Shown here: positions 867 to 59,164 of the stretch, piece after piece
How the letters are laid out: each line of letters starts with the position of its first letter
Numbering within the stretch: the stretch's first letter is position 1
Source: a virus
Strand: one strand, 5' to 3'
DNA length: 64,000 nucleotides
Virus record (IMG/VR): IMGVR_UViG_3300045988_122718
Span: 64,001 to 128,000 of that record
Made by a program: the position numbers and the translations under genes
The notes under the pieces: generated by a model
Database searches by the model: none
What the model was told of the DNA's origin: nothing
Seen by the model: only the letters and a program-made list of their open reading frames with translations

Positions 867-906
867 TATTGAAGAGGCCGGTGAACTCGCTAAGAGTACA
901 GCGGTC

Positions 907-8490: not shown

Positions 8491-8497
8491 ATGATAT

Positions 8498-8528
8498 GGA
8501 GGGGTGCTTCGGCACCTCTCCTTTAATT
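8498..8528 (+). terminator. hairpin after the tape-measure gene (possible attenuator or weak terminator)
   Basis: GGAGGGGTGC-TTCG-GCACCTCTCC followed by TTTAATT. The T-run is short. Confidence 0.35.
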
Positions 8529-8558
8529 ACATAAAGTAGTTATAGGAGGTGTGGTCTG

Positions 8559-9662: not shown

Positions 9663-9676
9663 GGAGGTGGCATAAA

Positions 9677-14569: not shown

Positions 14570-14584
14570 TGGAGGTGAAATAGA

Positions 14585-16345: not shown

Positions 16346-16381
16346 AAAATGGATTAAAAGGAGATAATTTATTATGAATGG

Positions 16382-26379: not shown

Positions 26380-27061
26380 TTATATCAATCCTTTTGCTAA
26401 TACAAAAAATACGAAGCCTGTTTTGTGGAACACCGTAATTCTTGCTATTCAATAAGTCAAATGTACTCTCGTACCCAATCTCAGTAAGTTTTTCCAGATA
26501 CTTAATAAAATTATGTTTGTGCTTATCACTCAATACGGCTGCAACATTTTCCCAAATTACATATTTAGGCTTTGATGTTCCAATTAGACGCAGAGATTCC
26601 CACATAAGAGAACTAGTTGTACCACTACCTTCGTCTCCACCAGCACCGAGTCCGGCCTGTGAAAAACTTTGACAAGGGCTACTATGAAAAACGATGTCTA
26701 CGTAAGGAAGACTTTCACAAAGACTTACATCACCAAGATTTTTTGCCAACTTATCCGCTAGATAATATTGCTTGACTTTATTTTCATTAGTTCTCATTGT
26801 GATGGTGTGCTTCGATTTGGCGAAGTCAAAGCCCACATTTTTCTTCTGTAGTTCAGATACCATGGTTTCTTTAGATGGAAATGTATAATTGTTAAATTCC
26901 TTCTCAAAGTCATACCTCATTGCTGCGTAACTTAAAATAGCATCTTTTTCAACATCCATCGTTGCAACAACTTCACAATTGATAGGCAACTGTCTAAGTG
27001 CCCTTTCTTGGGCACCAATACCCGAAAAAATCTCTATCAGCTTAATTTTATTATTGCCCAT
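26366..27061 (-). CDS. DNA (cytosine-5) methyltransferase, N-terminal fragment (motifs I-VIII)
   Basis: IEIFSGIGA (motif I), SSPCQSFSQAG (IV), VIWENV (VI), QNRLRIF (VIII). It ends 10 codons after motif VIII. Confidence 0.85.
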   Translation of the reverse strand: MGNNKIKLIEIFSGIGAQERALRQLPINCEVVATMDVEKDAILSYAAMRYDFEKEFNNYTFPSKETMVSELQKKNVGFDFAKSKHTITMRTNENKVKQYYLADKLAKNLGDVSLCESLPYVDIVFHSSPCQSFSQAGLGAGGDEGSGTTSSLMWESLRLIGTSKPKYVIWENVAAVLSDKHKHNFIKYLEKLTEIGYESTFDLLNSKNYGVPQNRLRIFCISKRIDINDEK

Positions 27062-39066: not shown

Positions 39067-39843
39067 TTATAGTTCATCGTCTTCTTCTGCAAGCTTCTTC
39101 TTAATAGCCTTAATTGCGGCTTGTACGTCTGGACGAGTAATATTTTCCTCCATCCAAATTACATAATCGTCACCAGAACGATATAGGTCGATTAACTTCT
39201 CGCCCTTATGCTTACCAAATGTCAGCACGTATTCCTCTGGCTTAGATTCTACTCTTGGAGCTTCAATGTTCTCGAAATCCATCATAATAGTTTTACGAGA
39301 TGCAAGGTAGTCTGCAAGATGTACTAGCTCTTGATATGTGTCTTCTGGTTTCGGCAAACATTCTCCGGTTTTTCTATCCACATTCCATTGGCCCATATGC
39401 GATTCAATACAATGAGCAATTAGTTCAATTTCATCGTGATTTAGATACTTGCCATCATAACTACGAATAACCGTTGCCATTTGTAGAGGGTGGTCGAATT
39501 TAGTATACTTACTTCTTTCATAATCTGATTGGGACCCACTCTTACGGCCATCATGAATCAGTCCTGCCACACGTAGCAAGTCTCTTTCTCTACTAGGAAT
39601 TATTTTGTTGTATTGTTCAAGTTCAAGAAAGAAATTTAGGAATCTTACAACTGCAATCTGATGACGCATCAATCCAAGTTCTCCAAGTGAATAGGCCGGA
39701 TGGTACTTTCCAGTAGACGATGCTCCAACATGCCAGATATATTCTGGAAGATTGTCTAGCAACACAATTGCAAAATCTTTAATATCATTATTTTCAAATG
39801 TATTTAGTACTGGTTCTACTATATTTAGTCTTTCAGGCGTCAT
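39067..39843 (-). CDS. HD-domain phosphohydrolase with C-terminal DUF3820/ExoX-C-like module
   Basis: H-x(n)-HDGRK motif. The C-terminus is VLTFGKHKGEKLIDLYRSGDDYVIWMEEN. Confidence 0.6.
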   Translation of the reverse strand: MTPERLNIVEPVLNTFENNDIKDFAIVLLDNLPEYIWHVGASSTGKYHPAYSLGELGLMRHQIAVVRFLNFFLELEQYNKIIPSRERDLLRVAGLIHDGRKSGSQSDYERSKYTKFDHPLQMATVIRSYDGKYLNHDEIELIAHCIESHMGQWNVDRKTGECLPKPEDTYQELVHLADYLASRKTIMMDFENIEAPRVESKPEEYVLTFGKHKGEKLIDLYRSGDDYVIWMEENITRPDVQAAIKAIKKKLAEEDDEL

Positions 39844-44364: not shown

Positions 44365-45120
44365 CTATATATCAAATTCTTTGTGTCTACCACAATCTCT
44401 TGATAACCACGTTATATTTCTTTTACCATTACCTTTGTTTGCTCCTCTATATGTAGGAGTTAATGAATGACAATTAGGGCATAACAATGTTAAATTTTCT
44501 TCTTTATTATTTGTTGCATCTCCATCAATATGTTCTATTTCAAGTGGCAAAGTTCCAGTATATGGATTAATTTCACTCCACCCACATTTTGCACATTTAT
44601 TTTCGTATTTATCAAAAATATATTTTTTAATAGACGAAGATAGGTCTATCCATTTATCACCTGTTAATCCATCCCATTCTCCATCTTTCCATTGTTTTAT
44701 TTTTTGTTTATATCTATATTCATTAAAACATTTTGCAGAACAATATTTATTTTTCTTAGGTATTTCTTTATTACAATTAATACAATAATGATGTCCTACT
44801 TTCTTTTTTCTATGTTGGTTGCTATATGTCACAGAGCATGAACGGGAACAAAACTCAATTCTTTTAAAATCACTATTTTTTTGATTATATTTTTGCGAGA
44901 TTTCTTTCCCACAATTTTTACAAAACTTAATATCTAATTCTTCTTTAATGTGCGGACATTTTTCAATCATACAATATTTTATTGTAGATAATTGCTTTTC
45001 AAATGTTTTATGACACCCATCACATTCTACAATATATATAGTATGATTGTCTTTTGTTCTTTTGTCAGATATCCCTATTATTGTATAACATCCATATTTT
45101 TCTCCTATGTGTTTATCCAT
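44365..45120 (-). CDS. HNH endonuclease (multi-Zn-ribbon N-terminus)
   Basis: The C-terminus LEIEHIDGDATNNKEENLTLLCPNCHS is an HNH core. It is embedded in the tRNA array. Confidence 0.8.
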   Translation of the reverse strand: MDKHIGEKYGCYTIIGISDKRTKDNHTIYIVECDGCHKTFEKQLSTIKYCMIEKCPHIKEELDIKFCKNCGKEISQKYNQKNSDFKRIEFCSRSCSVTYSNQHRKKKVGHHYCINCNKEIPKKNKYCSAKCFNEYRYKQKIKQWKDGEWDGLTGDKWIDLSSSIKKYIFDKYENKCAKCGWSEINPYTGTLPLEIEHIDGDATNNKEENLTLLCPNCHSLTPTYRGANKGNGKRNITWLSRDCGRHKEFDI

Positions 45121-45152: not shown

Positions 45153-45284
45153 TGGTGGGCCTGGAGGAACTCGAATCCTCGACCAATAGCTTAATGGTGG
45201 GAATGGCAGGTGCTGCCCCTACTTGCAAAAGCTTTTCTGAATACACCCCCAAGGCTACTGCTCTACCTACTGAGCTACAGACCC
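45153..45284 (-). tRNA. tRNA-Lys(UUU) interrupted by a 56-nt tRNA-like minihelix
   Basis: GGGTCTG-TA-GCTC..GAGC-A-GTAGC-CTT[56 nt]TTAA-GCTAT-TGGTC-GAGGA-TTCGAGT-TCCTC-CAGGCCC-A-CCA. The length is 76 nt after removal, and the body resembles bacterial tRNA-Lys. Confidence 0.8.
45195..45250 (-). ncRNA. nested tRNA-like minihelix (intron candidate) in tRNA-Lys
   Basis: GGGGGTG-(21 nt)-GTAGG-GGCAGCA-CCTGC-CATTCCC-A-CCA: a 7-bp acceptor-like helix (2 G-U), a 5-bp stem, a 7-nt GGCAGNA loop, a discriminator and CCA. Confidence 0.7.
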
Positions 45285-45287
45285 ATA

Positions 45288-45363
45288 TGGTCTGAGTGGT
45301 GAGTCCCGCCCTCACGGCCTCGTGGTCCCAGGCCACGCGCTCTGCTAACTGAGCTACACCCAG
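45288..45363 (-). tRNA. free-standing tRNA-like gene: Pro(UGG)-type anticodon loop with C33 and non-canonical T-loop GGCGGGA
   Basis: CTGGGTG-TA-GCTC-AGTTAGCA-GAGC-G-CGTGG-CCTGGGA-CCACG-AGGCC-GTGAG-GGCGGGA-CTCAC-CACTCAG-A-CCA. The D-loop lacks GG. Confidence 0.6.
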
Positions 45364-45975: not shown

Positions 45976-46001
45976 AATATGTACCTCCTAAAATTTTTGT
46001 A

Positions 46002-46124
46002 TGGCAGGGGTAGCAGGGTTCGAACCTACGATGCGGGAGTCTGGTCAAGGTAGTTGGTACTGCCCCAACTAAATTCACTTGAATACCTTGAAAGTCCCGT
46101 GCCTTACCACTTGGCTATACCCCT
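46002..46124 (-). tRNA. tRNA-Gln(UUG) interrupted by a 49-nt tRNA-like minihelix
   Basis: AGGGGTA-TA-GCC-AAGTGGTAA-GGC-A-CGGGA-CTTT[49 nt]GAC-TCCCG-CATC-GTAGG-TTCGAAC-CCTGC-TACCCCT-G-CCA. The body resembles bacterial tRNA-Gln (GCCAAG.GGUAAGGCA, weak 1-72 pair, G73). Confidence 0.8.
46042..46090 (-). ncRNA. nested tRNA-like minihelix (intron candidate) in tRNA-Gln
   Basis: CAAGGTA-TTCAAGTGAATTTA-GTTGG-GGCAGTA-CCAAC-TACCTTG-A-CCA. Confidence 0.7.
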
Positions 46125-46127
46125 ATA

Positions 46128-47012: not shown

Positions 47013-47015
47013 TAT

Positions 47016-47092
47016 GGTGACGCTACCGGGGATCGAACCCGGACACTCCACGGTGAAAGCGTGGTAACTCTACCAATTCGTCCATAGCGCCA
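47016..47092 (-). tRNA. tRNA-Glu(UUC)
   Basis: GGCGCTA..CCACG-CTTTCAC-CGTGG..CCGGG-TTCGATC-CCCGG-TAGCGTC-A-CCA. Confidence 0.85.
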
Positions 47093-47566: not shown

Positions 47567-47719
47567 TGGTCCCCTACCGGTGGATTGAACACCGAACCTC
47601 CCGATTATTGGCCTCCTCAGTAAGTCCTGCCCTTACATCTCTAAATCCTGCTGTTTAGTAGTTCTACTATTAAACTATGAGGAGAAGTCGGGTGCTCTAG
47701 CCAGTTGAGCTAGCAGGGG
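47567..47719 (-). tRNA. tRNA-Ile(UAU) interrupted by a 76-nt tRNA-like element
   Basis: CCCCTGC-TA-GCTC..GAGC-A-CCCGA-CTT[76 nt]ATAA-TCGGG-AGGTT-CGGTG-TTCAATC-CACCG-GTAGGGG-A-CCA. The length is 77 nt after removal. Confidence 0.75.
47609..47684 (-). ncRNA. nested full-length tRNA-like element (intron candidate) in tRNA-Ile
   Basis: CTCCTCA-TA-GTT-TAATAGTAG-AAC-TA-CTAAA-CAGCAGGA-TTTAG-AGAT-GTAAG-GGCAGGA-CTTAC-TGAGGAG-G-CCA. It is cloverleaf-sized, with an 8-nt anticodon-like loop and a GGCAGGA T-loop. Confidence 0.65.
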
Positions 47720-48550: not shown

Positions 48551-48683
48551 TGGTGCGGGTAGCGAGACTCGAACTCGCACGGATATTTCACCGAGGGATT
48601 TTTGGTGGATATTGTAGGTACTGCCCCTACCAAAGCACTTGCTATACCCAAGTCCCTTATGTCTGCCATTCCATCATACCCGC
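48551..48683 (-). tRNA. tRNA-Leu(UAA), class II, interrupted by a 47-nt tRNA-like minihelix
   Basis: GCGGGTA..A-AGGGA-CTT[47 nt]AAAA-TCCCT-CGGTGAAATATCCGT-GCGAG-TTCGAGT-CTCGC-TACCCGC-A-CCA. The length is 86 nt after removal. AAGGGA.UUAAAAUCCCUCGG matches bacterial tRNA-Leu(UAA). Confidence 0.8.
48603..48649 (-). ncRNA. nested tRNA-like minihelix (intron candidate) in tRNA-Leu
   Basis: GGGTATA-GCAAGTGCTTTG-GTAGG-GGCAGTA-CCTAC-AATATCC-A-CCA. Confidence 0.7.
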
Positions 48684-48731: not shown

Positions 48732-50285
48732 TTAAGAGTTCTTCAATGCGGCTTCCACCGCATCATATCTATCACTCATAAGCGTCTCAACTAGACACTC
48801 ATAAGGATCGGGTTTACCACTCATAACCATCTTGCAAACATTAGTGGAGAATCCGCTAACAAGAGCAACACCAAGGTCATTCTCCTTTACATGAATAGTT
48901 CCAGTGCGAGAATTTACATTCCAGAAGACTAGTCTAGGCATCTTATACCCAGCATACTCGAAACGCTTTTTGATCACATTAAAAAGTCTTGCATTAGGTC
49001 TATTAATACCATATCTAGCGGAACCATCACATGTTGCACAAGAGTCAAACTCCATGTCTGAAATAATGAGTACATTCTTAGGCATATCCTCTTGCTTCAT
49101 ACGACCATTTACCGCAGTAGTAAGAATCAAATCAAACACCTTTTCAATGTTTGTATTCGAACACTCGTCATGACCATACGCAACACATAACTTATCTCTC
49201 AGAGAATCGCACTGACTAAAATCAACCAACTGAGGTCTGCTAGAGAAAGTAATATATTTATCTTTAAAGTCTCCAGAAGAATGTTCTGCAAAGTAAATTG
49301 CAAGTGCATTTGCAACTTCAAGTGCAGTAACACGGCTACTTTCACCAACGTTACAACACATAGAAGCAGAACCATCTGCAACTACAATGGTGTTTCCACA
49401 CTCATTTACTGTATCAGGCAAAGCCCTCCAAAGAGATTCAAGAGTTGCATCATACTTGTTGACATAATTATTCCATCCAATTGTGTTAGAATACTTATGT
49501 ACAATGTCGTGAGGGAACAAAGTTCTAGCATTAATCTTAGTTTCACCATTTTCAAGCTTACTTAGATACTCTCTGCGACGCTCCTTATCATTACGAAGGA
49601 AAGCTCCGTTATAAATGAGATTTGCACGAGAAGGAACCGTTTCGTACTTAATGTCTCCCCATTTCTTTGCAGACATCTTACTTTCTACAATGTCAATGTA
49701 AGAACGCAGAGAAGAAAGAATCTTACGATACTTACGCTCTGTCATTCCAAGATTCTTGCAAATGTATCTTGCATCCATCTTAGTTTTTGCAGAAGAAGCA
49801 TTCACAGAAGGAAGCCACTTTGCAAGAAGAGATACGGGCTTATTATCAGCCATATTTGCAATGTCATCGGTGAGCTGCTTTTTGATGATGTCAAGAATAA
49901 CACCATCTACATCTGTTCCAAACAGACACCATAGGTCATCATAACGACCATACTCACTCACTAGAGGAGCAAGATGCTTAACAATGTCAACGTCATCCTT
50001 TACCATATTCTTAAGAATCACTCTGAACAAATGTCTCTCACCAAGACCACCATGAACATCTCTGGCGAAGAACAGCCAACGTAGAGCCATCATTTTATCT
50101 TCAAAATAAGCCTTAGTAAACTTATTATAGATATTCTCCTCACTCATACCACGCATAGAAGAAACTGCAAAGTTTAGGTCAACCAGTTCCTTACCAGAGG
50201 TACGATACCCAAGAGCGCCATTCTCAGTTACTGAATAGTTGAAATCCTCGTTCAGAGTATTCTTTACTGCATTCATAAAAGACAT
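48732..50285 (-). CDS. TROVE/DUF2828-like + vWA domain protein (Ro60-related candidate)
   Basis: The N-terminus VTENGALGYRTSGKELVDLNF...RWLFFARDVHGGLGER resembles DUF2828/TROVE. The C-terminal half has the vWA MIDAS motif VVADGSASM (D-x-S-x-S). A GGAGG RBS precedes the ATG at 50285. The size is Ro60-like. Confidence 0.6.
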   Translation of the reverse strand: MSFMNAVKNTLNEDFNYSVTENGALGYRTSGKELVDLNFAVSSMRGMSEENIYNKFTKAYFEDKMMALRWLFFARDVHGGLGERHLFRVILKNMVKDDVDIVKHLAPLVSEYGRYDDLWCLFGTDVDGVILDIIKKQLTDDIANMADNKPVSLLAKWLPSVNASSAKTKMDARYICKNLGMTERKYRKILSSLRSYIDIVESKMSAKKWGDIKYETVPSRANLIYNGAFLRNDKERRREYLSKLENGETKINARTLFPHDIVHKYSNTIGWNNYVNKYDATLESLWRALPDTVNECGNTIVVADGSASMCCNVGESSRVTALEVANALAIYFAEHSSGDFKDKYITFSSRPQLVDFSQCDSLRDKLCVAYGHDECSNTNIEKVFDLILTTAVNGRMKQEDMPKNVLIISDMEFDSCATCDGSARYGINRPNARLFNVIKKRFEYAGYKMPRLVFWNVNSRTGTIHVKENDLGVALVSGFSTNVCKMVMSGKPDPYECLVETLMSDRYDAVEAALKNS

Positions 50286-50530
50286 TTTCTTTCCTCCATT
50301 TTTTTGATTTATTTCTAAATCCCAAGACACATTATTATGTACAATCTCCACATTAAAAATTTGCTGTTAGTGTCTTTGGAGTTTATTCAACGAGACGCCA
50401 AAATAAAACCATTAGTAAAAATATCATTTTCATCTTTTTAAATTACTGTAAGCGTCTCTATGTAAGGCAAGGCACCATCAATACAAATCCATATCATATT
50501 ATGTAAAGTTGCTGTTAGTGCCTTTTTAAA

Positions 50531-50648
50531 GTCTCCTGACAGGACTTGAACCTGCGACCTCTGGTTTAACAGACCAATTAGAAACTTGCTATTTAAGGCT
50601 TTTACAAGTCTCGTTATTAAGCGCTCTATCCGACTGAGCTACAGGAGA
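50531..50648 (-). tRNA. tRNA-Asn(GUU) copy with a 44-nt insertion between the D-arm and anticodon stem
   Basis: TCTCCTG-TA-GCTC-AGTCGGATA-GAGC-G-[44 nt]-TTGGT-CTGTTAA-ACCAG-AGGTC-GCAGG-TTCAAGT-CCTGT-CAGGAGA-C. No CCA is encoded. Confidence 0.55.
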
Positions 50649-51311: not shown

Positions 51312-51340
51312 TATTATAGCACATTAATTTTGTTTTGTCA
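51312..51340 (-). promoter_or_regulatory. sigma-A promoter (tandem, upstream of the previous one)
   Basis: TTGACA (51335-51340, overlapping the TGA of the PurA-like gene), 17 nt spacer, TGCTATAAT (-10 at 51312-51317). Confidence 0.6.
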
Positions 51341-52486
51341 AGTATCTTTTTTAAATAATTTTCTAGTTTCTTCATAAGACAGGTACTTAATATTAATGCC
51401 CGTCAAATTCAGCAGTTTTTCATTTTTAAACTCGTTAACATGAGTTACTGCCAGAGACACCTCATAGGCAATATCCCCAATATCTTCCTTAATTCTTTGC
51501 ATAAGCTCACCAACATCAAGATGCCCATACCGAATAGACCCCTGATACTGGTTTGTAATATTGGTCTTGTCATCAATGTTAATGTTAATCTCCGACTTGT
51601 CACATTCACATTCAAAATCACCAGCACCATGCTTCGTCATATATGTTCTAGTAACATAGCACACTTCAACGTTTGCATTAGGTAAATACTTTTCAATGAT
51701 TATATGAGGATTTGCAATGCCAGTATTGCTAGGAGTCGTATTATCATAATACTGAACATGACGCTGATCCAACAGCAATCCTTGCCCATTTTCAAATATA
51801 ACGTTATCAAACTTTTGCAAAATCCTACTATAATCAAATACTACATGAGAATGTATAAACTGCACATCGTCAATAAAGTTATAAATCAAATTGTCGGATG
51901 CCAAAATATCTTCCCATTCCTGCAAAACTTCAGGACTAGCCTTTAGCAGCCTCTTAGACGTATATTCATCCCTGACACGCTTAAGAAATGCGACCTGCTC
52001 GTCCTTAGTCATATTATAAAACTGCTGGAAAGACGGACTTGTAGTATTCCTATATCTAAGAACAGTTTCCCAAATACCCATACCACAAGAGCCATACCGA
52101 TTTTTGCCACGACTATCCTCAAGGATTTGATTTGTAATCATATCATATGGAGTAGACCATCTGCAATTCCAATGACTATAAACACGAGGTGCATAGCCTA
52201 ATGCCTTCAGTTCCTCGTACTCTTTTCTAAAAGTCATAGGATTTAGAATATACTCTTCCCCAAAATAAGTATCTGCTCCCGCAAAGGTTCCTGAACCAAA
52301 ATGGTGGAACACATGTCTAATGTCATCTGGAGTAACTACAGTATGTCCTCTTTGTGCGCCGCCATTGCATAGAGCAACGATACAAGATTCATTCCGCTTA
52401 CTTGCTTCGGCACAAAAGTAATCGGTCATCAGACCTTTTCCCTCGTCGCCAAAATTGCTGCCAATTACTACCTTAACATTAGACAT
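51338..52486 (-). CDS. adenylosuccinate-synthetase-like (PurA family) enzyme, divergent
   Basis: P-loop VVIGSNFGDEGKGLMTDYF, GGAQRGHTV and YGSCGMGIWET parallel the PurA motifs (GDEGKG, N-A-GHT, TTG-GIGP). The ATG at 52486 follows AAAGGA. Confidence 0.65.
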   Translation of the reverse strand: MSNVKVVIGSNFGDEGKGLMTDYFCAEASKRNESCIVALCNGGAQRGHTVVTPDDIRHVFHHFGSGTFAGADTYFGEEYILNPMTFRKEYEELKALGYAPRVYSHWNCRWSTPYDMITNQILEDSRGKNRYGSCGMGIWETVLRYRNTTSPSFQQFYNMTKDEQVAFLKRVRDEYTSKRLLKASPEVLQEWEDILASDNLIYNFIDDVQFIHSHVVFDYSRILQKFDNVIFENGQGLLLDQRHVQYYDNTTPSNTGIANPHIIIEKYLPNANVEVCYVTRTYMTKHGAGDFECECDKSEININIDDKTNITNQYQGSIRYGHLDVGELMQRIKEDIGDIAYEVSLAVTHVNEFKNEKLLNLTGINIKYLSYEETRKLFKKDT

Positions 52487-52500
52487 GTGTTTATCCTTTC

Positions 52501-53355
52501 TTACCAAGAAATACCTTCACTAGATGTTGCTACATTGCCACCAGAAAACGCATTGGTGACAATATCAATGATGTCGTCTGCAATCTTATCAACAGATGTA
52601 TCCTTCAGATGATTCTCGTCCAGAAGCTGTCCGAAAGTCTTATGAACATCCTCCTGATAACGACCATAACCATGCTTGACATACAGGTGATAGATATCAA
52701 ACTTCTCGGATGCATCAATGTAAAGCTGCGTCGTTTCAATATCATTCTGTAGGTCATCACCAGTCACTGCAGATAGAGCCTTCTTCGGCAGATATGGATT
52801 CATAGGCTCATCACCCATAGTGATAATGACACCCTTCTGTCCACGATTCCAGCAGTCTAGCTTCGTGTGGTTAAGGCCGAAATACCATGCGGCGCTATAA
52901 GACTCATAAGCATTACCTCCGCCGCCGCCCTCAAAATAAATCTTATCAAGCTGTTCTGCGATACGGATATCAGACTCAAACTGGGATGCCTGAATTGGAG
53001 CGCAATCGTAAGCAAGGTCCCCAATGCCCATAACCATAAACTCTACGTCTGCGATATTCTCGTATAGTTTGGTCATTACTACGTTGATCTGCTTTGCAAC
53101 TTCCATAGCCGCCTTGCCCATGCTACCAGTTACATCGAGTGCTAGAATAACAGGCTTGGTATTAGGATGCTCCACAGAATCAACACACTCACGCATTACA
53201 TTCTTGGGATCAAGGTCTGCTACTAGCATTCTAGATCTGAAATTGTCCTGCACATTAGAGGACATTCCAGTGACTACACCGTCCATTGACACGTTGTACC
53301 CCTTGGTAGTCGTATAAGAGGTAAAAGCGCTTCTAGTCCAACTGCCACCGCCCAT
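52501..53355 (-). CDS. von Willebrand factor A (vWA) domain protein
   Basis: The MIDAS motif is LALDVTGSMG (D-x-T/S-x-S), with a beta-alpha pattern typical of vWA. Confidence 0.7.
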   Translation of the reverse strand: MGGGSWTRSAFTSYTTTKGYNVSMDGVVTGMSSNVQDNFRSRMLVADLDPKNVMRECVDSVEHPNTKPVILALDVTGSMGKAAMEVAKQINVVMTKLYENIADVEFMVMGIGDLAYDCAPIQASQFESDIRIAEQLDKIYFEGGGGGNAYESYSAAWYFGLNHTKLDCWNRGQKGVIITMGDEPMNPYLPKKALSAVTGDDLQNDIETTQLYIDASEKFDIYHLYVKHGYGRYQEDVHKTFGQLLDENHLKDTSVDKIADDIIDIVTNAFSGGNVATSSEGISW

Positions 53356-54088: not shown

Positions 54089-54117
54089 ATTATAGCACCA
54101 GATGTTTTATTTATCAA
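54089..54117 (-). promoter_or_regulatory. sigma-A promoter (tandem)
   Basis: TTGATA (54112-54117, overlapping the dnaE TGA), 17 nt spacer, TGCTATAAT (-10 at 54089-54094). Confidence 0.55.
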
Positions 54118-57100
54118 GAGGGTAATTGCACGTTTATCAAGTAGTTCGTCAGCCATTTCTCCGTGACAGAATAATTCTTTTGCCACTGGCCATCGACCAA
54201 CTTTGACTTCGGTCGCTGCTCCCAATGGAAATTCAAAAAGCACCCCTTATCAAAAGGATTTTTCTCATATGCCCTTTTTTGCACTTTATATGTCACGATC
54301 TTTCCGTCCCAGAGTTGATAAATCTGTATCTTTGGAGAATATCGGCAATTCACATCCATGACATAACCAATATCCTTTTTGCTTTCATCCTTATAACAAA
54401 TATAACCTAAATACTCTGACTGCCATGTAAATATGCTTTGCATAGGTACGGTGCAATTGCTCGGAATCATACAACAAAGTTCTGTGATAAAGCCGTTTGT
54501 GTCCTGTACTCGCCACTGCTTCTCTGTCTCCGTACAATACTTGGTTAAAATCTCCATAGGAAGTTTACACTTATCCTTCTTGATAATTTTCTTTCCGCCA
54601 TATGCATTATACATTTCAACTGTACGTAGTAAAGTACCTATAGTTCCGAACTCAGAAAAATAATCGAGCTTAATCAAAATGTCTAACATTCTACTGTTTC
54701 CAGGAAACGCCCTAATGATATCTACGAATGAGTCAAAATGCTCATCTTTCATCGCATAAAGTTTATCCGATGTTTCTGCGTTAATAAATTTGACCGAAGA
54801 CATGCCTTTATAGATCGTATTTTCTGTCTTATCACAGTTATAATCAGACTTAGAGTGTCTAAACTTTATGTCCTTCAATGTAATACCGAAGTACGGAAGT
54901 TCATCAATAAGCTTTGCCGTTCTATCCATATCGCCACTATACATAGTAAGTACTACAGTAAAGTATTCAAGAGGATAATGCGACTTCAAATACGCTCCGT
55001 ACATTGAGTCTATTGCCACACTAAGACTATGTGATGCATTGAACGAGTAGTGTGCAGCATCATTAACAACTTGCCATGTTTCTGCGAAGCCTTTTTCTGT
55101 ACCAACATTTTTAATCCAACCTTGTAGAAGCTCTGATTCAAGTTTCTTCAACTCATCCTCTTTGAATTTCTTCTTTGCAATCTTCTTGATGGTATCATAG
55201 GTGCCCTTTTCTTCCATACCTAACCACACAAGATAGCTCATGATATTCTCTTGGTACATAAGAAAATGGAATGAGTCTTCTAGAATATCATCAAGCTCTT
55301 TGACGCCTGTAGTATATGGCTTCCTCTCTACAAATGTATTTAACAATGAAGCAAAGCCAGGGCGAATAGCGGCTACATATGCAGACATCTCTGCTAAGTT
55401 TCTAGGTTTATACCTCTTAAGAATCTGCTTATCATAATCACTATCGGCCTGATTTATTGTCGTAGTAAGACCTTTAGCATAAATATCCCACACCTTATCA
55501 TCGCAGTTTTTGATAAGTGTCGTAATATTGTCAATCGGTCTACCAATCATTTCATATACATCATGAATAATCTGATATACAGAAACAGTTAAATAATCGT
55601 TCTTTAGATACTTATAAACATCACAATTATAACCATCAAGACAGCAACAAGTTACGTCTCCGACCTTAATTAGACCTATCATTTCAGATATTTTATCGTT
55701 GGACAGAAGAAAACTACAAGGACTTGGTGCAACACTTTCTACTACTCCACGGAAAATCTTGCTACCCTCTATCAAATCCTTCCACTTAGGGTCATCCAAA
55801 TGATTTTCCAAATTTTTCGCCACATCATCATACTCTGAAATGTTAAGGCCATTAGCTTTACACCAAAGACGGAACGCAGAAGATTCCTGTAGTGGCTTAT
55901 ACGCAACCATATAATAGATTCCGTCTTCGCCAAGAATATCCTTACTCGCTTGAATAACAGGTGTTACATCCGCAAAGTTAAGATCAATATCTGGGATGCT
56001 GCGACTAGAAAGAATACGCTCTGCCGACATAAATCTCGTAGGATAGAGTTTGATAGGGGCACTAATACGGTCTACCTCGGTAAGCCCTAACAACTTGTTG
56101 ATATAAAAAGACACTGCCGATCCACGCCCGCTACGAGTTAAAATGGCATCATAATCCTTGACTGCCTTTTCTACAACGTAATGGTCTAGAATAAAATAGT
56201 CTGCCATACCACAGTCTTCAATAATCTTATATTCGTACTTGATTTGCTCGATATATTCCTTGTGACGTTCTTTAGGCACATTGACCTTTTCTCTGCGCCA
56301 TCCTTCATTGATAAGCTTTCGCAAAATAGCATTGCTATCGCCTTCAACTACTTTAGGAATTTTAAACTCCTTATCAATATAAATACCTTCGGCATTATCG
56401 AATACAAGGGTATTATTTAGGGCTTCTTCCACTTCTCCTCTTGTGAGTATCCCCTGTTTCTCATAGCGTTCAAAGATAGTATCAGAATCAGGATAGTCAA
56501 GACAGAATCCTGATTCTTCTTCATATACAATGCCTTTAGCCTTTAAGAATAAGTCACGATACTTGGCATCTTCTGGTAAAATATAGTGAGAGTCATTGGC
56601 ATGGATAATAGGCACACCAGTCTCTCTATGCAAAGCAATAATCTTTTTATTATACTCTATCTGGTGAATATCATTATGATTTTGCACCTCAAGATAAAAA
56701 TTTTTCCCAAAATGTTTATAAAGAGGTTCAAAAAAGTTAGCGCTCCAATAATCTGGTTCAATCGGTATCTTTTCGTAAATTGGCTTTTTAACAATCCGAT
56801 CTCCCACATGATAACTGGGGCCAGAATCATTAACCACTACGTCTCTATATCCGATAATATTTCTTGTTTCTTCATAATATTTTGGTTTAAACATTCTCCC
56901 AGCAATACAAGCAGTCGTTACAACAACTTCTTCTGCCGGTAGACTAAGGAGGAGTTTGAGATCAATTCTTGGCTTATAATAATACCCTTCAGTATTGGCC
57001 ACAGACATAATCCTGTTGATTTCTCTACGAGCATTTTCTGTTAAAGCCACAAGCATTATATGATAATTTGTTCGACTTGTTTTATCATTGATGTCGTCAA

Positions 57101-57317
57101 CGTAATACGCCTCAACTGCATAAATACACTTCAAATCATTCTGCTGACAAAGAGTATAAGCTTCAAAAATGTTACCTTGAAACCCATGCTCTGTAGTGAA
57201 ATATGTAGTATGACCAAGCTCCTTAGCACGATTGATGTAGTCAATTGGTTTCACCACACAATCCAATGTGCGCAAATTACTATACATCGTATGTTTATGG
57301 TAGTTGTTATATCTCAC
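54114..57317 (-). CDS. dnaE: DNA polymerase III alpha subunit (DnaE-type, N-terminal PHP domain)
   Basis: The PHP motif is HKHTMYSNLRTLDCV...ELGHTTYFTTEHG. The 1067-aa length and polymerase core pattern fit. Confidence 0.85.
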   Translation of the reverse strand: MRYNNYHKHTMYSNLRTLDCVVKPIDYINRAKELGHTTYFTTEHGFQGNIFEAYTLCQQNDLKCIYAVEAYYVDDINDKTSRTNYHIMLVALTENARREINRIMSVANTEGYYYKPRIDLKLLLSLPAEEVVVTTACIAGRMFKPKYYEETRNIIGYRDVVVNDSGPSYHVGDRIVKKPIYEKIPIEPDYWSANFFEPLYKHFGKNFYLEVQNHNDIHQIEYNKKIIALHRETGVPIIHANDSHYILPEDAKYRDLFLKAKGIVYEEESGFCLDYPDSDTIFERYEKQGILTRGEVEEALNNTLVFDNAEGIYIDKEFKIPKVVEGDSNAILRKLINEGWRREKVNVPKERHKEYIEQIKYEYKIIEDCGMADYFILDHYVVEKAVKDYDAILTRSGRGSAVSFYINKLLGLTEVDRISAPIKLYPTRFMSAERILSSRSIPDIDLNFADVTPVIQASKDILGEDGIYYMVAYKPLQESSAFRLWCKANGLNISEYDDVAKNLENHLDDPKWKDLIEGSKIFRGVVESVAPSPCSFLLSNDKISEMIGLIKVGDVTCCCLDGYNCDVYKYLKNDYLTVSVYQIIHDVYEMIGRPIDNITTLIKNCDDKVWDIYAKGLTTTINQADSDYDKQILKRYKPRNLAEMSAYVAAIRPGFASLLNTFVERKPYTTGVKELDDILEDSFHFLMYQENIMSYLVWLGMEEKGTYDTIKKIAKKKFKEDELKKLESELLQGWIKNVGTEKGFAETWQVVNDAAHYSFNASHSLSVAIDSMYGAYLKSHYPLEYFTVVLTMYSGDMDRTAKLIDELPYFGITLKDIKFRHSKSDYNCDKTENTIYKGMSSVKFINAETSDKLYAMKDEHFDSFVDIIRAFPGNSRMLDILIKLDYFSEFGTIGTLLRTVEMYNAYGGKKIIKKDKCKLPMEILTKYCTETEKQWRVQDTNGFITELCCMIPSNCTVPMQSIFTWQSEYLGYICYKDESKKDIGYVMDVNCRYSPKIQIYQLWDGKIVTYKVQKRAYEKNPFDKGCFLNFHWEQRPKSKLVDGQWQKNYSVTEKWLTNYLINVQLPS

Positions 57318-57540: not shown

Positions 57541-57582
57541 TTAATTTTGTACTGTTATATCATACTTCTTCTTCTTTGTCAA
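57541..57582 (-). promoter_or_regulatory. sigma-A promoter + leader box
   Basis: TTGACA (57577-57582), 17 nt spacer, TGATATAAC (-10 at 57554-57559), overlapping ACAGTACAAAATTAA (57541-57555). Confidence 0.6.
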
Positions 57583-59164
57583 GTTTAACATAATCATTCA
57601 TTGTAAGCTGAAAAAACTTATTGCGACCATAATACGGGGCTGCCAAAGTGCCAATCCCAACAAACTCTCCGTTATTATCCATAGTTTTCCACGACATATC
57701 GTTCCACTTGACTAGAATAACTCCACTCTCATCAATAATTTTTAAATGTTTCTTAGTAGAGAATGTACTCACTTCATAGTTATCGGTTCTAATAAGCACT
57801 GTAACCGCTGGGGAATCTTTCCCACTGATACGATTAAAAGCGTTAAGCTGCTTAATGAGTTGTTCATTTACCTGTTCTGCTGTGATTTCAATATCAGCCT
57901 CAATATCGACACTAAATTCAATATCTGCTAGTTCATCTTCTATGACATTTCTAAACTGTTCAAATTTATCTGTATCACAAGTAAACCCAGCCGCCGACTC
58001 ATGTCCGTCACAACGAGCTAGACCAGTATTGTTTACTATACCCATGAAATCTGGGATTCCTATGGCCCTCATGCTGCCAGATATTGTGTCACCATAATCT
58101 CTAACTACTATAAGGGGGCGCTGGAATTCTGATAGCAAACGGTTCCCGACCAAGCCCGTTATATCCGCATCTGTTTCGTCAATGAAAAACACCATAAACT
58201 TTTTATCCAATTGCTCTTCACCTTGCTTCATAAGGTCTGGTAATATTCCATTGACAATCTCATTCTGCTCTTCACGACACGCTTTAAGTTTTGGATAAAT
58301 TTCAGCAATTTCATCCTCATCTTCTGCCAAAAACATTTGTGCGGACAAATCATTATGCCTTGTTCTAATTGCAGCATTAACTAGTGGGGCAATACTAAAT
58401 TGAATAGCTTCTGTATTAAACTGATAAGTGCCGATCATTTTTTTAACAATTGGATTTTGATATTGGTTTAATCCCTTGCTAACGATATACCGATTTTCTG
58501 GCTCTGCAAGTGAGCAGACATCTGCAACGATTCCAACTGCTCCATACCACCATAAATCATCTGCATAATCAGTAAGATTCATTTCATCACAATATAAGCA
58601 GCACTTAAGCACAACACCAGCACCTGACAGTTGGCTATTCGGGTAATCTACTGCGCTACTTACAAGAACAAACGGAACATTACTATTTAATAATTCTTGG
58701 CTCGGAATATGATGATCCATCACAATCAAAGAAATTCCAGAGTCTGTAATTTTTTTATATATACTAGGGTCATTATTAAGACTGTCTACTACAATAATAA
58801 TATCTACTCCATCAAAAACTTCCAAATCTATGTTCTGTACGCCATGTTCCTTCTTGTCGTGTACAAAATATGAGACATCTGCGCCGGCTCTTTGTAGGTA
58901 TTTGGTCATAATTGCTCCAGCAGCATGGCCATCTTGGTCTTCGTCCCACACTACGCAAAATTTATATCCCATTGCTATTCCATCGTCAATAATTTCATAC
59001 GCCTTGTCTATGTTTTTTAACTTCTCAAATGGGATTAAGGAGTCCTCACTTGGGTGCAAGAACTCCTGAATATCTTCAATTTCTCTATCATCAAGTATGG
59101 TTTCTATAATTTCACCATTATCCATACCACGACAATCATATTTTGCCTTTAATACTTTCTTCAT
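57560..59164 (-). CDS. DHH-family phosphoesterase (RecJ-like single-strand exonuclease)
   Basis: Motifs DEDQDGHAAGA, VVDS, MDHH and GHESAAGF (DHHA1). Confidence 0.75.
   Translation of the reverse strand: MKKVLKAKYDCRGMDNGEIIETILDDREIEDIQEFLHPSEDSLIPFEKLKNIDKAYEIIDDGIAMGYKFCVVWDEDQDGHAAGAIMTKYLQRAGADVSYFVHDKKEHGVQNIDLEVFDGVDIIIVVDSLNNDPSIYKKITDSGISLIVMDHHIPSQELLNSNVPFVLVSSAVDYPNSQLSGAGVVLKCCLYCDEMNLTDYADDLWWYGAVGIVADVCSLAEPENRYIVSKGLNQYQNPIVKKMIGTYQFNTEAIQFSIAPLVNAAIRTRHNDLSAQMFLAEDEDEIAEIYPKLKACREEQNEIVNGILPDLMKQGEEQLDKKFMVFFIDETDADITGLVGNRLLSEFQRPLIVVRDYGDTISGSMRAIGIPDFMGIVNNTGLARCDGHESAAGFTCDTDKFEQFRNVIEDELADIEFSVDIEADIEITAEQVNEQLIKQLNAFNRISGKDSPAVTVLIRTDNYEVSTFSTKKHLKIIDESGVILVKWNDMSWKTMDNNGEFVGIGTLAAPYYGRNKFFQLTMNDYVKLDKEEEV

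Follow-up and report, generated by a model that had tools for sequence, protein, structure and literature searches.

The window analysed here, a stretch of viral DNA of 64,000 nucleotides, carries a tRNA-Gln(UUG) gene on its minus strand that is interrupted inside the anticodon. Two exons flank an insert of 49 nt with the sequence CAAGGUA-UUCAAGUGAAUUUA-GUUGG-GGCAGUA-CCAAC-UACCUUG-A-CCA, which is predicted to fold as a small tRNA-like structure of its own. The parts of the gene and of the insert are as follows.

46002-46124, minus strand: interrupted tRNA-Gln(UUG) gene, 123 nt (46124 to 46002), read from the sequence
46091..46124, minus strand: 5' exon, 34 nt, ending in CUUU; acceptor 5' strand, D arm, anticodon-stem 5' strand and C32 U33 U34 U35 (Rfam tRNA alignment; equal to the uninterrupted L123 and L128 orthologues)
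46042..46090, minus strand: nested tRNA-like minihelix, the putative intervening sequence, 49 nt from its own +1 to CCA (exact indel, MFE fold, covariation)
46084..46090, minus strand: acceptor-like 5' strand CAAGGUA, pairing with 46046-46052 (compensatory A-U to G-C change in L127)
46073..46083, minus strand: small D-like hairpin UUC-AAGU-GAA within the linker (MFE structure; weakly supported)
46053..46069, minus strand: T-like arm GUUGG-GGCAGUA-CCAAC with its loop at 46058-46064 (conserved core; the stem covaries, G-C to A-U in L032)
46046..46052, minus strand: acceptor-like 3' strand UACCUUG (MFE fold, covariation)
46042..46045, minus strand: discriminator A and CCA, directly abutting the 3' exon (read from the sequence)
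46002..46041, minus strand: 3' exon, 40 nt (GAC...GCCA); G36 A37 C38, anticodon-stem 3' strand, variable loop, T arm, acceptor 3' strand, G73 and CCA (Rfam tRNA alignment; uninterrupted L123 and L128 orthologues)

The interrupted gene is missed by ARAGORN in its default mode. The Rfam tRNA model (RF00005) matches 46005-46124 with 54.2 bits (gathering score 29, E 7.5e-10), a cloverleaf score above the family threshold; the alignment spans the model over its whole length (1-71) and places 51 inserted nt in the anticodon loop. In intron mode, ARAGORN finds the gene at 46002-46124 and names it tRNA-Glu(ttc), which is exactly the mimicry that the first-pass annotation had expected of a naive reading. 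When the insert was removed in silico, a detectable tRNA-Gln of 74 nt was obtained, with the 7-nt loop CUUUGAC, the anticodon UUG and an exon-exon junction in which GGCACGGGACTTT is followed directly by GACTCCCGCATCG. This spliced sequence was found to be 80–90% identical to annotated tRNA-Gln genes of E. coli and phages, and it matches cellular tRNA-Gln(UUG) genes at 68–69 of 74 positions (93% identical). A further copy, in the related locus L122, differs from the window gene in one T-stem base and was called Gln(ttg) once spliced.

Uninterrupted orthologues were found in two related loci (L123 and L128). These are called Gln(ttg) and share the same body and the loop CTTTGAC, so that the indel is exactly 49 nt without sliding ambiguity; their alignment places the insert precisely between U35 and G36. 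The comparison upholds the first-pass annotation on the Gln rather than Glu identity of the gene, its Gln-type body, the nested helix at 46042-46090, the junction at 35/36 and the loop left after excision. A normal tRNA-Glu(UUC), which had been placed at 47016-47092, is likewise present in the window, one base away at 47015-47091. By sequence comparison, the gene structure with a 49-nt insert in the tRNA-Gln anticodon is thus confirmed as real.

The nested element and its relatives

The nested element consists of a 7-bp acceptor-like stem, a small D-like hairpin and a 5-bp T-like stem with the loop GGCAGUA, followed by ACCA, and has no anticodon arm. The MFE fold of the locus is a nested three-way structure, and a short hairpin with an AGU triplet is also seen in other Gln copies and in most Leu copies. 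The window contains three copies of the core GGGGCAGYACC, where 0.34 would be expected, and all three lie within interrupted tRNAs. Across 17 distinct homologues, which sit in tRNA-Leu(UAA), Lys(UUU), Gln(UUG) and a CUA suppressor of diverse uncultured phages, the 12 nested helix pairs are 96.6% paired; since this set was chosen for good pairing and, in most members, for ACCA, the percentage and the invariance of ACCA are partly built in. Changes on both sides were observed in nine of the 12 pairs, and the observed score was reached by none of 500 shuffles, in agreement with the nested helix proposed earlier. The single-sequence folding energy was modestly better than that of shuffled sequences (z -1.6 to -1.8). 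The case for the nested structure rests on the comparative data, the thermodynamic z-scores being unimpressive. Judged from these substitution patterns, the nested helices are real and under purifying selection as RNA structure.

Features of substrates for RNase P and tRNA 3'-end processing are present in the element, namely a 12-bp acceptor/T coaxial helix (7+5 bp), a 7-nt T loop and a 3' NCCA. In addition, the same T arm was found in full-length phage tRNAs that stand alone and in permuted tmRNAs, and these too must be matured at such ends. The element of one relative (L032) matches that of the window at 47 of 49 positions, whereas the host tRNA bodies differ at many positions.

Three further tRNA genes of the window are interrupted in a similar manner:

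45153..45284, minus strand: tRNA-Lys(UUU) with a 56-nt nested minihelix (45195-45250), junction 34/35 (Rfam tRNA 56.8 bits, split analysis)
47567..47719, minus strand: tRNA-Ile(UAU) with a 76-nt nested full-size tRNA-like element (47609-47684), junction 34/35 (ARAGORN intron mode, split analysis)
48551..48683, minus strand: tRNA-Leu(UAA) with a 47-nt nested minihelix (48603-48649), junction 34/35 (Rfam tRNA 39.7 bits; exact 47-nt indel)

Within the window, tRNA-Gln(UUG), Lys(UUU), Leu(UAA) and Ile(UAU) are represented by interrupted copies only, and CAA, AAA, UUA and AUA are common codons in this phage. Intron-mode ARAGORN miscalls the anticodons, with Lys read as Thr and Leu as Pro in addition to Gln as Glu. 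In-silico splicing of the Lys case (identical element in L195) gave Lys(ttt), and that of the Ile case gave Ile(tat). The element nested in tRNA-Ile(UAU) folds with acceptor, D-like and T arms, has the T loop GGCAGGA and ends in GCCA. For Leu, uninterrupted orthologues in three loci (L123, L127 and L128) fix the exact 47-nt indel, and the inserts are polymorphic, present or absent, among phages that are about 90% identical.

The position of the junction in the host tRNA was found to vary among homologous nested cases (34/35, 35/36 and 36/37). The limits of the nested element are constant: in all nested cases examined in the window and the related loci, it starts at its own +1 and stops at CCA, or at CAA in one variant. 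NCCA ends all nested elements of this phage group, with an Ile variant in ACAA as the sole exception. These observations agree with the rule, put forward in the first-pass annotation, that the junction is set by the nested helix and not by a fixed host position. After excision in silico, ARAGORN recognised a tRNA with the anticodon expected for it in 22 of the 23 nested cases, whereas without splicing it detected none of the 23 host tRNAs. Furthermore, the spliced Leu(UAA) genes of seven divergent phages retain a type II cloverleaf in which 19 of the 25 pairs show compensatory changes. Nearly all interrupted tRNAs here and in the related loci carry U34 (Lys, Gln, Leu-UAA, Ile-UAU and Glu).

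Real tRNAs are nested in the same manner in related phages, with tRNA-Asn(GUU) inside Lys(UUU) and tRNA(CUA) inside Ile(UAU). A graded series therefore exists at the same site and under the same boundary rule, from real tRNAs through degenerate full-size tRNA-like elements to minihelices. A nested real tRNA can be functional only if end processing frees it, and its release necessarily cuts the host anticodon loop. Altogether, these patterns suggest that the host tRNA matters and that the interrupted genes are functional, and the conservation of intact, covarying exons points to splicing of the interrupted tRNA.

Neighbouring genes and searches beyond the window

The tRNA array is accompanied by genes for RNA repair, by a Ro60-like gene and by mobile elements, of which the following bear on the interpretation of the insert.

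17137-18288: tyrosine integrase (Pfam)
33833..34381, minus strand: calcineurin-like metallophosphoesterase, possibly a 2',3'-phosphate healing enzyme (Pfam Metallophos_2, E 1.6e-8)
35284..36195, minus strand: polynucleotide 5'-kinase-like protein for end healing (Pfam AAA_33 and KTI12; C. thermocellum Pnkp kinase domain 4gp7, E 3e-13)
36386..37195, minus strand: RlaP-family nucleotidyltransferase, a weak match (Pfam PF10127, E 3.5e-4, 20.8 bits against a curated cut-off of 23)
37473..38636, minus strand: ATP-dependent RNA ligase of the Rnl5 type, Naegleria/Deinococcus family (Pfam PHA02142 OB-fold and RNA_ligase; PDB NgrRnl 5cot, E 1.5e-39; TIGR02306 DRB0094)
39067..39843, minus strand: HD-domain phosphohydrolase adjoining the ligase (Pfam HD, E 3e-7; syntenic with the tRNA array in related phages)
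44365-45120: HNH gene inside the tRNA array
48732-50351, minus strand: Ro60/Rsr-like gene, recognised by fold, directly upstream of the tRNA array and 2.6 kb from tRNA-Gln
50531-50648: Y-RNA candidate (homologue), separate from the nested element

The repair cassette, comprising the ligase, the kinase, the RlaP match, the metallophosphoesterase and the HD protein, lies 6–12 kb from the tRNA-Gln gene. The ligase, at a distance of about 7 kb, is a candidate for the exon-sealing enzyme, and the RlaP family is described as an RNA-ligase-associated 3'-end repair enzyme (PMC12776372). In 12 related loci the HD gene is found at an equivalent place, and two loci each show the ligase or RlaP at their edge, the loci compared being short and from close relatives only. 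Many small ORFs without recognised function surround the cassette. Pfam scans of 41 window ORFs, a set without the five 5' ORFs (48-16852) and several smaller ones in a genome of ~155 kb, revealed no RNase Z, EndA/TSEN-like enzyme or other RNA endonuclease. The Ro60-like gene lies on the same strand as the nested element and less than 4 kb from it, the arrangement known for Y RNAs, but the whole tRNA array shares this proximity.

Selfish elements are abundant in this genome and include an intein in ribonucleotide reductase, the HNH gene of the tRNA array and a NUMOD1 ORF that splits a methylase gene. The HNH endonuclease was considered as a driver of the inserts and rejected, being absent from relatives that carry the same inserts.

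Samples that contain this phage include JGI 3300056084 and the runs ERR11504117 and SRR7751837. Outside the related uncultured phages, the element was not found in any of 50,697 GenBank phage records at BLAST sensitivity. A search of cellular genomes (596 Gb) returned 11 pattern matches, all on contigs of MAGs or single-cell genomes; none of the 11 is nested in a tRNA, most being free-standing odd tRNAs and a few chance-like. A scan of metagenome contigs for the exon-exon junction gave 12 matches, all of them cellular tRNA-Gln(UUG) genes, mostly in tRNA clusters of the Arg-His-Gln type. Exon bases particular to the phage gene are A1, U16 and the T loop TTCGAAC. At the sequence level, these junction matches confirm the Gln identity and say nothing on splicing; they also give a hint of a Firmicute-like host.

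Possible processing routes

The reading to which we give an even chance is that the 49-nt insert is an intervening sequence, a stripped-down tRNA within a functional phage tRNA-Gln(UUG), which would be excised by RNase P and an endonuclease acting after CCA, with the Rnl5-type ligase sealing the exons. We infer both the splicing itself and its enzymatic steps, which could run as follows. The tRNA array would be transcribed, and the outer tRNA and the nested element would fold independently. Host RNase P would take the nested element for a pre-tRNA and cut between U35 and C+1, leaving the 5' exon with a 3'-OH, while a 3'-end-maturation endonuclease would cut right after the CCA of the element, an activity that RNase Z/BN has in some bacteria, and would thereby free a 3' exon that starts at G36 with a 5'-phosphate. 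Held by the anticodon stem and the tRNA body, the exons would then form a nicked anticodon loop that the phage Rnl5-type ligase could seal; if the 3' nuclease left a 5'-OH and a cyclic phosphate, the neighbouring kinase and phosphoesterases would heal these ends before sealing. The predicted product is a 74-nt tRNA-Gln with the loop CUUUGAC. As both cuts would be set by the ends of the nested element, the host junction may fall anywhere in the anticodon (34/35 to 36/37).

Several points count against this model. RNase Z of the Bacillus type is inhibited by CCA, in most bacteria precursors that encode CCA are trimmed by exonucleases, to which the 3' exon would be lost, and Rnl5-type ligases favour nicks in duplexes over nicks in loops. 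The repair cassette is also not specific to nested tRNAs, because such cassettes are common in large phages without them (PMC7824862). Moreover, the tRNA introns of Lak phages contain an extra 5' hairpin segment that a simple RNase P and after-CCA model would not remove. A precedent for the model is provided by YrlA of M. smegmatis, a larger RNA with a tRNA-like module: RNase P cleaves it at the 7-bp acceptor stem, and CCA is added (PMC4201824).

In a broader and more tentative form, for which we would claim somewhat less than an even chance, these genes would represent a third, previously undescribed route of phage tRNA splicing: either a tRNA or a reduced form of one would serve as the intron, ordinary maturation enzymes would cut at its two ends and a phage repair ligase would seal the exons. 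Such introns could have arisen when a repair ligase accidentally joined a mature tRNA (5'-phosphate...CCA-OH) into an anticodon loop opened by a defence nuclease, the product then being copied back into DNA. An origin of this kind would explain the mature-tRNA ends of the element and the nearly exclusive use of U34 hosts; tRNAs with U34 are the class attacked by anticodon nucleases such as PrrC. Nesting may shield the anticodon loop from anticodon nucleases or modifying enzymes of the host, it may tie tRNA supply to the phage ligase, and the released minihelix may additionally serve the neighbouring Ro60-like protein.

Competing explanations differ in which enzyme cuts and in whether the host tRNA is restored at all. 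The insert could be a true intervening sequence that a dedicated endonuclease of phage or host recognises by its GGCAGYA arm or by the junction and cuts on both sides, the resulting cyclic phosphate and 5'-OH ends being healed and ligated in the manner of T4 Pnkp/Rnl1. The full healing kit near the ligase (kinase, metallophosphoesterase and HD protein) speaks for such a nuclease, as it would be superfluous for ends of the RNase P/Z type, and the invariance of the GGCAGYA loop in this element class suggests a specific reader; the cassette is also surrounded by many small ORFs of no known function. On the other side, Pfam recognised no candidate endonuclease among the 41 window ORFs, and such phages would be expected to carry healing enzymes in any case, to counter anticodon nucleases. 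The boundary rule is also obeyed by elements whose T loop is ordinary (TTCGAGT, TTCAAGT) or of another kind (type B, GTCATCA), so GGCAGYA cannot be a universal signal, and we consider a dedicated nuclease unlikely. The nested element might instead itself be the point, with the freed ACCA-bearing minihelix acting as a small RNA, either as a partner or decoy of the Ro60-like protein of the phage, in the manner of a Y RNA, or on tRNA-binding defence or processing proteins; the host tRNA would then be mainly a scaffold and its re-ligation optional. This would fit the Ro60-like gene directly upstream of the array and the partnership of Ro proteins, in bacteria and phages alike, with tRNA-like Y RNAs whose genes lie within 4 kb of them on one strand (PMC4201824), as well as the better conservation of the element than of its host. 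A Ro-like gene also flanks 11 of 186 loci fetched by DNA pattern alone, and all 11 are nested-minihelix loci, including the distant L177 and L190. However, Ro-like genes adjoin arrays of uninterrupted annotated tRNAs too (e.g., in EFDG1), so that this co-occurrence may reflect only adjacency to the array. The intact, covarying exons indicate that the host tRNA matters, the element has no match to Rfam YrlA (RF02553) and lacks the CTTGT/ACAGCAA helix of the Y-RNA homologues of these phages, and a better Y-RNA candidate exists at 50531-50648, which makes a role of the element as small RNA alone quite improbable.

A selfish or accidental insertion is also conceivable, in which nothing is spliced and the resulting tRNA pseudogenes are tolerated as the host supplies the tRNAs. 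The richness of the genome in selfish elements (intein, HNH, NUMOD1) and the presence/absence polymorphism among phages about 90% identical are in line with this. It has little probability in our view, since the exons rebuild a perfect tRNA in 22 of 23 cases, the Leu genes of divergent lineages show compensatory changes in 19 of 25 pairs, a dead gene would offer no reason for purifying selection on the nested helices, and four tRNAs for common A-ending codons would be dead at once. Finally, the segment resembling a tRNA 3' end might be a feature of the DNA, namely an attachment or recombination site of the phage integrase, or its scar. The window does encode a tyrosine integrase, and integrases often target the part of tRNA genes from the T arm to CCA. 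Against this stand the 5'/3' strand covariation in both helices, which denotes selection on RNA structure, the occurrence of four different elements per genome, boundaries that equal mature tRNA ends and not a recombination core, and the lack of the HNH gene of the array in insert-carrying relatives; a role as attachment site is therefore scarcely credible.

In bacteria and their viruses, tRNA genes are not known to carry introns other than self-splicing ones, and tRNA splicing by enzymes counts as a distinguishing feature of archaea and eukaryotes. If excision by maturation enzymes and sealing by the phage ligase are true, they would constitute a new splicing pathway that pairs a short tRNA-like intron with cuts of the RNase P type and with a ligase for RNA repair. 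Phage RNA ligases would then have a housekeeping task besides mending damage, and there would be a definite path by which accidents of tRNA repair could give birth to introns. ARAGORN in default mode is blind to these genes and to a wider class of phage tRNAs with a GGCAGYA T loop, the GGCAGYA class tested here being missed entirely. Because such tRNAs are invisible to it, the tRNA sets listed for many uncultured phages, their inventories of suppressor tRNAs and the arguments built on their codon usage are probably misread.

Comparison with known introns and tRNA-like modules

Among catalytic RNAs, small self-cleaving ribozymes (hammerhead, twister, pistol, hatchet and HDV-like) gave no match at E up to 10 on 45990-46127. 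The insert resembles the group I introns of bacterial and phage tRNAs in its anticodon-loop site, in the preceding U and in its behaviour as a mobile insertion. The catalytic core P3-P9 of group I introns usually exceeds 200 nt and the intron 3' end carries a terminal G. Here, the insert measures 49 nt and ends in ...ACCA, with A instead of a terminal G as its last base, and Intron_gpI gave no match at E up to 10 at the locus or at the gathering score over the whole window; a group I intron was accordingly rejected.

Archaeal and eukaryotic bulge-helix-bulge introns, which are spliced by proteins (EndA/TSEN with RtcB or Trl1) and whose exons are rejoined by a ligase, are similar as short inserts in or near the anticodon loop, and some of them carry a functional small RNA. 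Their splice sites sit in two bulges of 3 nt, one on each strand, with a helix of 4 bp between them. In the present element, the two junctions lie opposite one another at the foot of a single nested helix (sequence, MFE and centroid structures), with a 4-nt ACCA tail on one side only, and this class was likewise rejected. The variable position inside the anticodon, as opposed to 37/38, and the context of a bacterial virus are further differences. In MALAT1 mascRNA, mitochondrial tRNA punctuation and plant t-elements, RNase P and RNase Z cut at an embedded tRNA-like fold and so define the ends of the flanking RNAs. Those flanking RNAs are not re-ligated, unlike what is proposed here.

Rejoining is known from the repair of tRNA-Lys by T4 Pnkp/Rnl1 after cleavage by an anticodon nuclease, and from phage RNA-repair cassettes, in which phage enzymes reseal a break in the anticodon loop and whose gene kinds (ligase, kinase, phosphoesterase and RlaP) are present in the window (Burroughs and Aravind, 2016; PMC7824862). 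In T4, the break is damage inflicted by the host, whereas here it would be programmed by the structure of the gene, and the ligase is of the Rnl5 and not the Rnl1 type. YrlA-type Y RNAs (Chen et al., 2014, RNA; PMC4201824) and permuted two-piece tmRNAs share with the present element a tRNA-like module (acceptor-like stem, D arm and T arm) inside a larger RNA and the vicinity of a Ro60-type gene; permuted tmRNA genes also have an internal ...ACCA end, and their phage examples share the GGCAGUA loop. In these RNAs, a disposable loop closes the acceptor stem and nothing is rejoined, whereas the present element is set into an essential anticodon, whose bases adjoin it directly on both sides.

The closest parallel is found in the "enigmatic" tRNA introns of Lak megaphages, described as a short, highly conserved anticodon-loop insert that "may encode a tRNA", for which no mechanism was proposed (Devoto et al., 2019, Nat Microbiol; PMC6784885). 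In the full-text literature searched, this observation was the only related report, and no description of the element or its mechanism was found. As in Lak phages, a tRNA-like fold sits in the anticodon-loop insert of a phage tRNA, the insert is present or absent between related genomes, Rfam gives no match, and standard tools misplace the splice site, an error that is corrected by aligning alleles with and without the insert. The Lak inserts are 79–114 nt long, begin with a 5' hairpin and an A/U-rich linker, have T loops of the TTCGAAT type and no encoded CCA, and lie near 37/38. Here, the insert is the tRNA-like element only, from +1 to CCA, down to 47 nt in length, with the loop GGCAGYA and junctions from 34/35 to 36/37. 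Nested-tRNA interruption in bacterial viruses has been glimpsed before and never explained, and the 49-nt insert would be an intervening sequence of a kind not previously characterised.

The interrupted tRNA-Gln(UUG) gene and its boundaries

The tRNA-Gln gene spans 123 nt of the minus strand, running 5' to 3' from 46124 down to 46002, and is divided by a nested insert:

46091-46124 (-), tRNA-Gln 5' exon
46042-46090 (-), nested insert, 49 nt
46002-46041 (-), tRNA-Gln 3' exon

With the insert in square brackets, the gene reads AGGGGUA-UA-GCCA-AGUGGUA-AGGC-A-CGGGA-CUUU [CAAGGUA UUCAAGUGAAUUUA GUUGG GGCAGUA CCAAC UACCUUG A CCA] GAC-UCCCG-CAUC-GUAGG-UUCGAAC-CCUGC-UACCCCU-G-CCA. By default, ARAGORN reports 13 tRNAs in the window, and tRNA-Gln 46002-46124 is not among them; the same mode places an ordinary tRNA-Glu(UUC) at 47015-47091. 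The Rfam tRNA model matches the gene at full length (46005-46124, 54.2 bits), treating the insert as a 51-nt loop insertion. In intron mode, ARAGORN detects the gene, guesses the splice site and calls tRNA-Glu(ttc), the naive misreading that the first-pass annotation had foreseen.

For comparison, 44 related phage loci were retrieved from IMG/VR contigs (~65-170 kb, most >100 kb) with the protein encoded beside the tRNA array as query. In the close relatives L123 and L128, the tRNA-Gln gene is uninterrupted and nearly identical in its body to the window copy, with the loop CTTTGAC and an ARAGORN call of Gln(ttg). In the alignment, the gap coincides exactly with the 49-nt insert and cannot be slid along the flanking bases. 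Spliced in silico, the tRNA gives 80-90% matches to tRNA-Gln genes annotated in E. coli and in many phages, and shares 68-69 of 74 positions with cellular tRNA-Gln(UUG) genes (92-93% identity) on metagenome contigs L376-L387, where these lie mostly within Arg-His-Gln-type tRNA clusters. The exact gap and the Gln matches therefore place the junction at U35|G36, as had been claimed from the sequence, and the proposed Gln(UUG) identity is borne out by the orthologue loop, the Gln(ttg) calls and the matches of the spliced form. The similarity to L376-L387 hints at possible capture of the phage tRNA-Gln from a Firmicute-like host lineage.

Nested elements in sister genes and related phages

Three further tRNA genes in the window are interrupted:

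45153-45284 (-), tRNA-Lys(UUU), 56-nt insert at 45195-45250, junction 34/35
48551-48683 (-), tRNA-Leu(UAA), 47-nt insert at 48603-48649, junction 34/35
47567-47719 (-), tRNA-Ile(UAU), 76-nt full-size tRNA-like insert at 47609-47684 with loop GGCAGGA, junction 34/35

None is found by default ARAGORN, and intron mode miscalls Lys as Thr, Ile as Arg and Leu as Pro. Uninterrupted orthologues define the Leu insert as an exact indel from +1 to CCA. A second, unrelated minihelix of 48 nt (GUCAGAC...GGCACCA, loop GUCAUCA), part of which resembles the 3' half of tRNA-Gln (GACUCCC...GGUUCAA), occupies position 34/35 of a paralogous tRNA-Gln(UUG). The copies of this minihelix, and the full-size elements that related phages also carry in anticodon loops, are distributed as follows:

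L124, L125, L126 (14436-14558), L128 (14234-14354): 48-nt minihelix in paralogous tRNA-Gln(UUG)
L301, L303, L304, L129, L130: full-size element, Lys host
L126, L127: full-size element, Ile host
L013 (3330-3481), L302, L299: full-size element, Glu, Arg-UCU and Thr host, respectively

The nested elements in relatives include genuine tRNAs, namely an amber-suppressor-type tRNA(CUA) inside tRNA-Ile(UAU) at 36/37 and an ARAGORN-perfect tRNA-Asn(GUU) inside tRNA-Lys(UUU); other full-size elements are degenerate tRNA-like forms whose anticodon loops are odd or 8 nt long. Over all cases the junction shifts from 34/35 to 36/37, while every element starts with its own first acceptor base and ends in CCA (in one variant, CAA), which upholds the earlier proposal that the rule is set by the nested helix and not by a fixed host position. 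After in-silico removal of the element, ARAGORN recognised a standard tRNA in 22 of the 23 cases; the sole failure is cut off by the locus end.

The fold of the insert comprises an acceptor-like stem of 7 bp, a small hairpin, and a second stem of 5 bp capped by the 7-nt loop GGCAGUA; a 4-nt ACCA tail follows. The full precursor is predicted to form an outer cloverleaf containing a nested three-way structure. The gain in folding energy over shuffles is modest (about 1.6-1.8 SD), and the case for structure therefore draws on comparison. The window contains the core GGGGCAGYACC three times (0.34 expected), each copy within an interrupted tRNA. Pattern scans of IMG/VR located the element in tRNA-Leu(UAA), Lys(UUU), Gln(UUG) and a CUA-suppressor tRNA, in many unrelated, uncultured phages. 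Across 17 distinct copies, 12 helix pairs are 96.6% paired, a percentage that, like the ACCA invariance, is partly built in, as copies were selected for good pairing and mostly for ACCA. The variety of pair types is not a product of these criteria. Of the 12 pairs, 9 are altered on both sides, the observed score was reached by none of 500 shuffles, and pairing drops to 32-51% in slid registers. These sequence comparisons identify the insert as tRNA-like, structured and under selection.

The interrupted genes themselves look functional by comparative criteria. Once spliced, the Leu(UAA) genes of seven divergent phages retain a type II cloverleaf, and 19 of 25 pairs show compensatory changes. 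Furthermore, Gln(UUG), Lys(UUU), Leu(UAA) and Ile(UAU) are present in the window as interrupted copies only, and CAA, AAA, UUA and AUA are frequent codons in it. Each insert is present in some and absent from other phages ~90% identical to one another, and the inserts have therefore been gained or lost cleanly and often.

Proposed processing and alternative explanations

The element retains the features read by tRNA end-maturation enzymes (acceptor/T helix, loop and NCCA) and has lost the anticodon arm. Genuine tRNAs nested in relatives can work only if freed by RNase P and 3' processing, so that their release necessarily cuts the host anticodon. The retained signals, together with real tRNAs at the same position, form the basis of a three-step proposal: RNase P would cut between U35 and C+1 of the element, an endonuclease would cut directly after its CCA, and the nicked anticodon loop would be ligated. 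This is the most likely way in which splicing would work. A precedent is the embedded tRNA-like module of M. smegmatis YrlA, which is cleaved by RNase P (PMC4201824). An RNA-repair cassette (33833-39843, minus strand), with interspersed small ORFs of no known function, lies 6-12 kb from the tRNA-Gln gene:

33833-34381 (-), metallophosphoesterase
35284-36195 (-), Pnkp-like kinase
36386-37195 (-), RlaP nucleotidyltransferase family, weak match below the Pfam cut-off
37473-38636 (-), Rnl5-type RNA ligase (NgrRnl match, E 1.5e-39)
39067-39843 (-), HD protein (phosphohydrolase)

Both RlaP (PMC12776372) and such phage cassettes (PMC7824862) are known RNA-repair equipment. The HD gene keeps its position in 12 related loci; the ligase and RlaP genes are each found at the locus edge in two. 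In a more distant phage group (~60% identity), an Rnl5-like ligase lies immediately downstream of a Ro-like gene.

The precise cut after CCA would be the weakest link of the model. Many bacteria use exonucleases for tRNA 3' maturation at this step. The main rival is excision of the insert by a dedicated nuclease, followed by heal-and-seal repair. Other readings are ruled out: a group I intron by the 49-nt length, the lack of an Rfam group I match and the terminal A; a bulge-helix-bulge intron by the position of both junctions at the base of a single helix; a known small ribozyme by the lack of any Rfam ribozyme match at the locus; and an att site because the covariation is RNA-type. A link to the HNH gene in the array is likewise rejected, since that gene is missing at this position in all related loci.

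This HNH/zinc-ribbon endonuclease gene (44365-45120, minus strand), between tRNA-Arg(GCG) and the interrupted tRNA-Lys, is by the same absence probably a free-standing homing endonuclease. Elsewhere in the window, a ribonucleotide reductase (19820-23236, minus strand) harbours an intein that has a LAGLIDADG-like domain. The gene of a C-5 cytosine DNA methylase (24735-27061, minus strand) is broken into a pair of ORFs (26366-27061 and 24735-25922) around an overlapping NUMOD1-domain ORF (25849-26379), which suggests a mobile-element insertion. A divergent adenylosuccinate-synthetase-like gene (51338-52507, minus strand) near a PolIII-alpha/PHP polymerase and a DHH phosphoesterase (54114-57317 and 57560-59164) could encode a PurZ-type enzyme of 2-aminoadenine genomes; its solved-structure matches are all named adenylosuccinate synthetase, none PurZ.

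Ro-like gene, GGCAGYA class and known systems

Directly upstream of the tRNA array, 48732-50351 (minus strand) encodes a DUF2828/DUF7788 protein that is Ro60/Rsr-like by predicted fold. Human Ro60 (9nen) and D. radiodurans Rsr (2nvo), both matched at full length, are the only PDB fold matches with E <1e-3 to the medium-confidence model (pLDDT 66.5). Among cultured phages, 704 records contain homologues, some labelled 'RNA-binding protein'; in Enterococcus phage EFDG1, the homologue lies after a tRNA array, and YrlA-like Y RNAs precede it. In the window, 180 nt upstream of the Ro-like gene, 50531-50648 (minus strand) matches the tRNA model (42 bits) with a 57-nt block replacing the anticodon arm, and folds as a tRNA plus an extra 9-bp hairpin. 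It aligns with the circularly permuted YrlA-like Y RNA of EFDG1 (73% mean column identity) and, in L134, L043 and L143, with comparable RNAs that lie upstream of Ro-like genes. It seems to be a Y-RNA homologue with the topology of a tRNA, in which the acceptor is open and the Ro-type helix is closed. A weak YrlA-like match also lies between the Ro-like gene and the tRNA array of L177 (5047-5106).

The GGCAGYA T loop also marks phage permuted tmRNAs and free-standing phage tRNAs, the latter a wide class with many different anticodons and D loops lacking GG (e.g., AACAGCA, AAUAGCA):

45291-45363 (-), free-standing tRNA of the class in the window, T loop GGCGGGA
L169, L170, L178, L201, L206, L210, L217, L283, L290: example loci with free-standing GGCAGYA tRNAs
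L018, L024, L054, L069, L103, L118, L002, L004, L005: phage permuted tmRNAs

ARAGORN detected none of 199 GGGGCAGNACC…NCCA pattern fragments, a mix of real GGCAGYA tRNAs, nested elements and chance matches, and the class is therefore probably missing from phage tRNA inventories. It is far rarer in cellular genome contigs (11 matches in 596 Gb) than in viral contigs (57). The permuted tmRNAs (two-piece, alpha-proteobacterial type; 100-123 bits) have a tRNA-like domain with the same GGCAGUA loop, then an internal ...CUCC-ACCA end. Besides its nested Leu minihelix, the distant phage L190 has two further RNA features (204-277 and 13571-13923): an HDV-F-prausnitzii-like ribozyme, just below threshold (43.6 bits) and immediately upstream of a tRNA, and a tmRNA.

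Full-text literature searches found no description of the nested element. The nearest report concerns Lak megaphage tRNAs with 'enigmatic', highly conserved introns, one of which 'may encode a tRNA' (Devoto et al., 2019; PMC6784885). Elements of this kind have thus been sighted before and not characterised; if the proposed mechanism is true, the splicing pathway itself would be new. The Lak introns likewise place a tRNA-like part within a phage tRNA insert; they differ by an extra hairpin ahead of that part, by the lack of CCA and by ordinary T loops.
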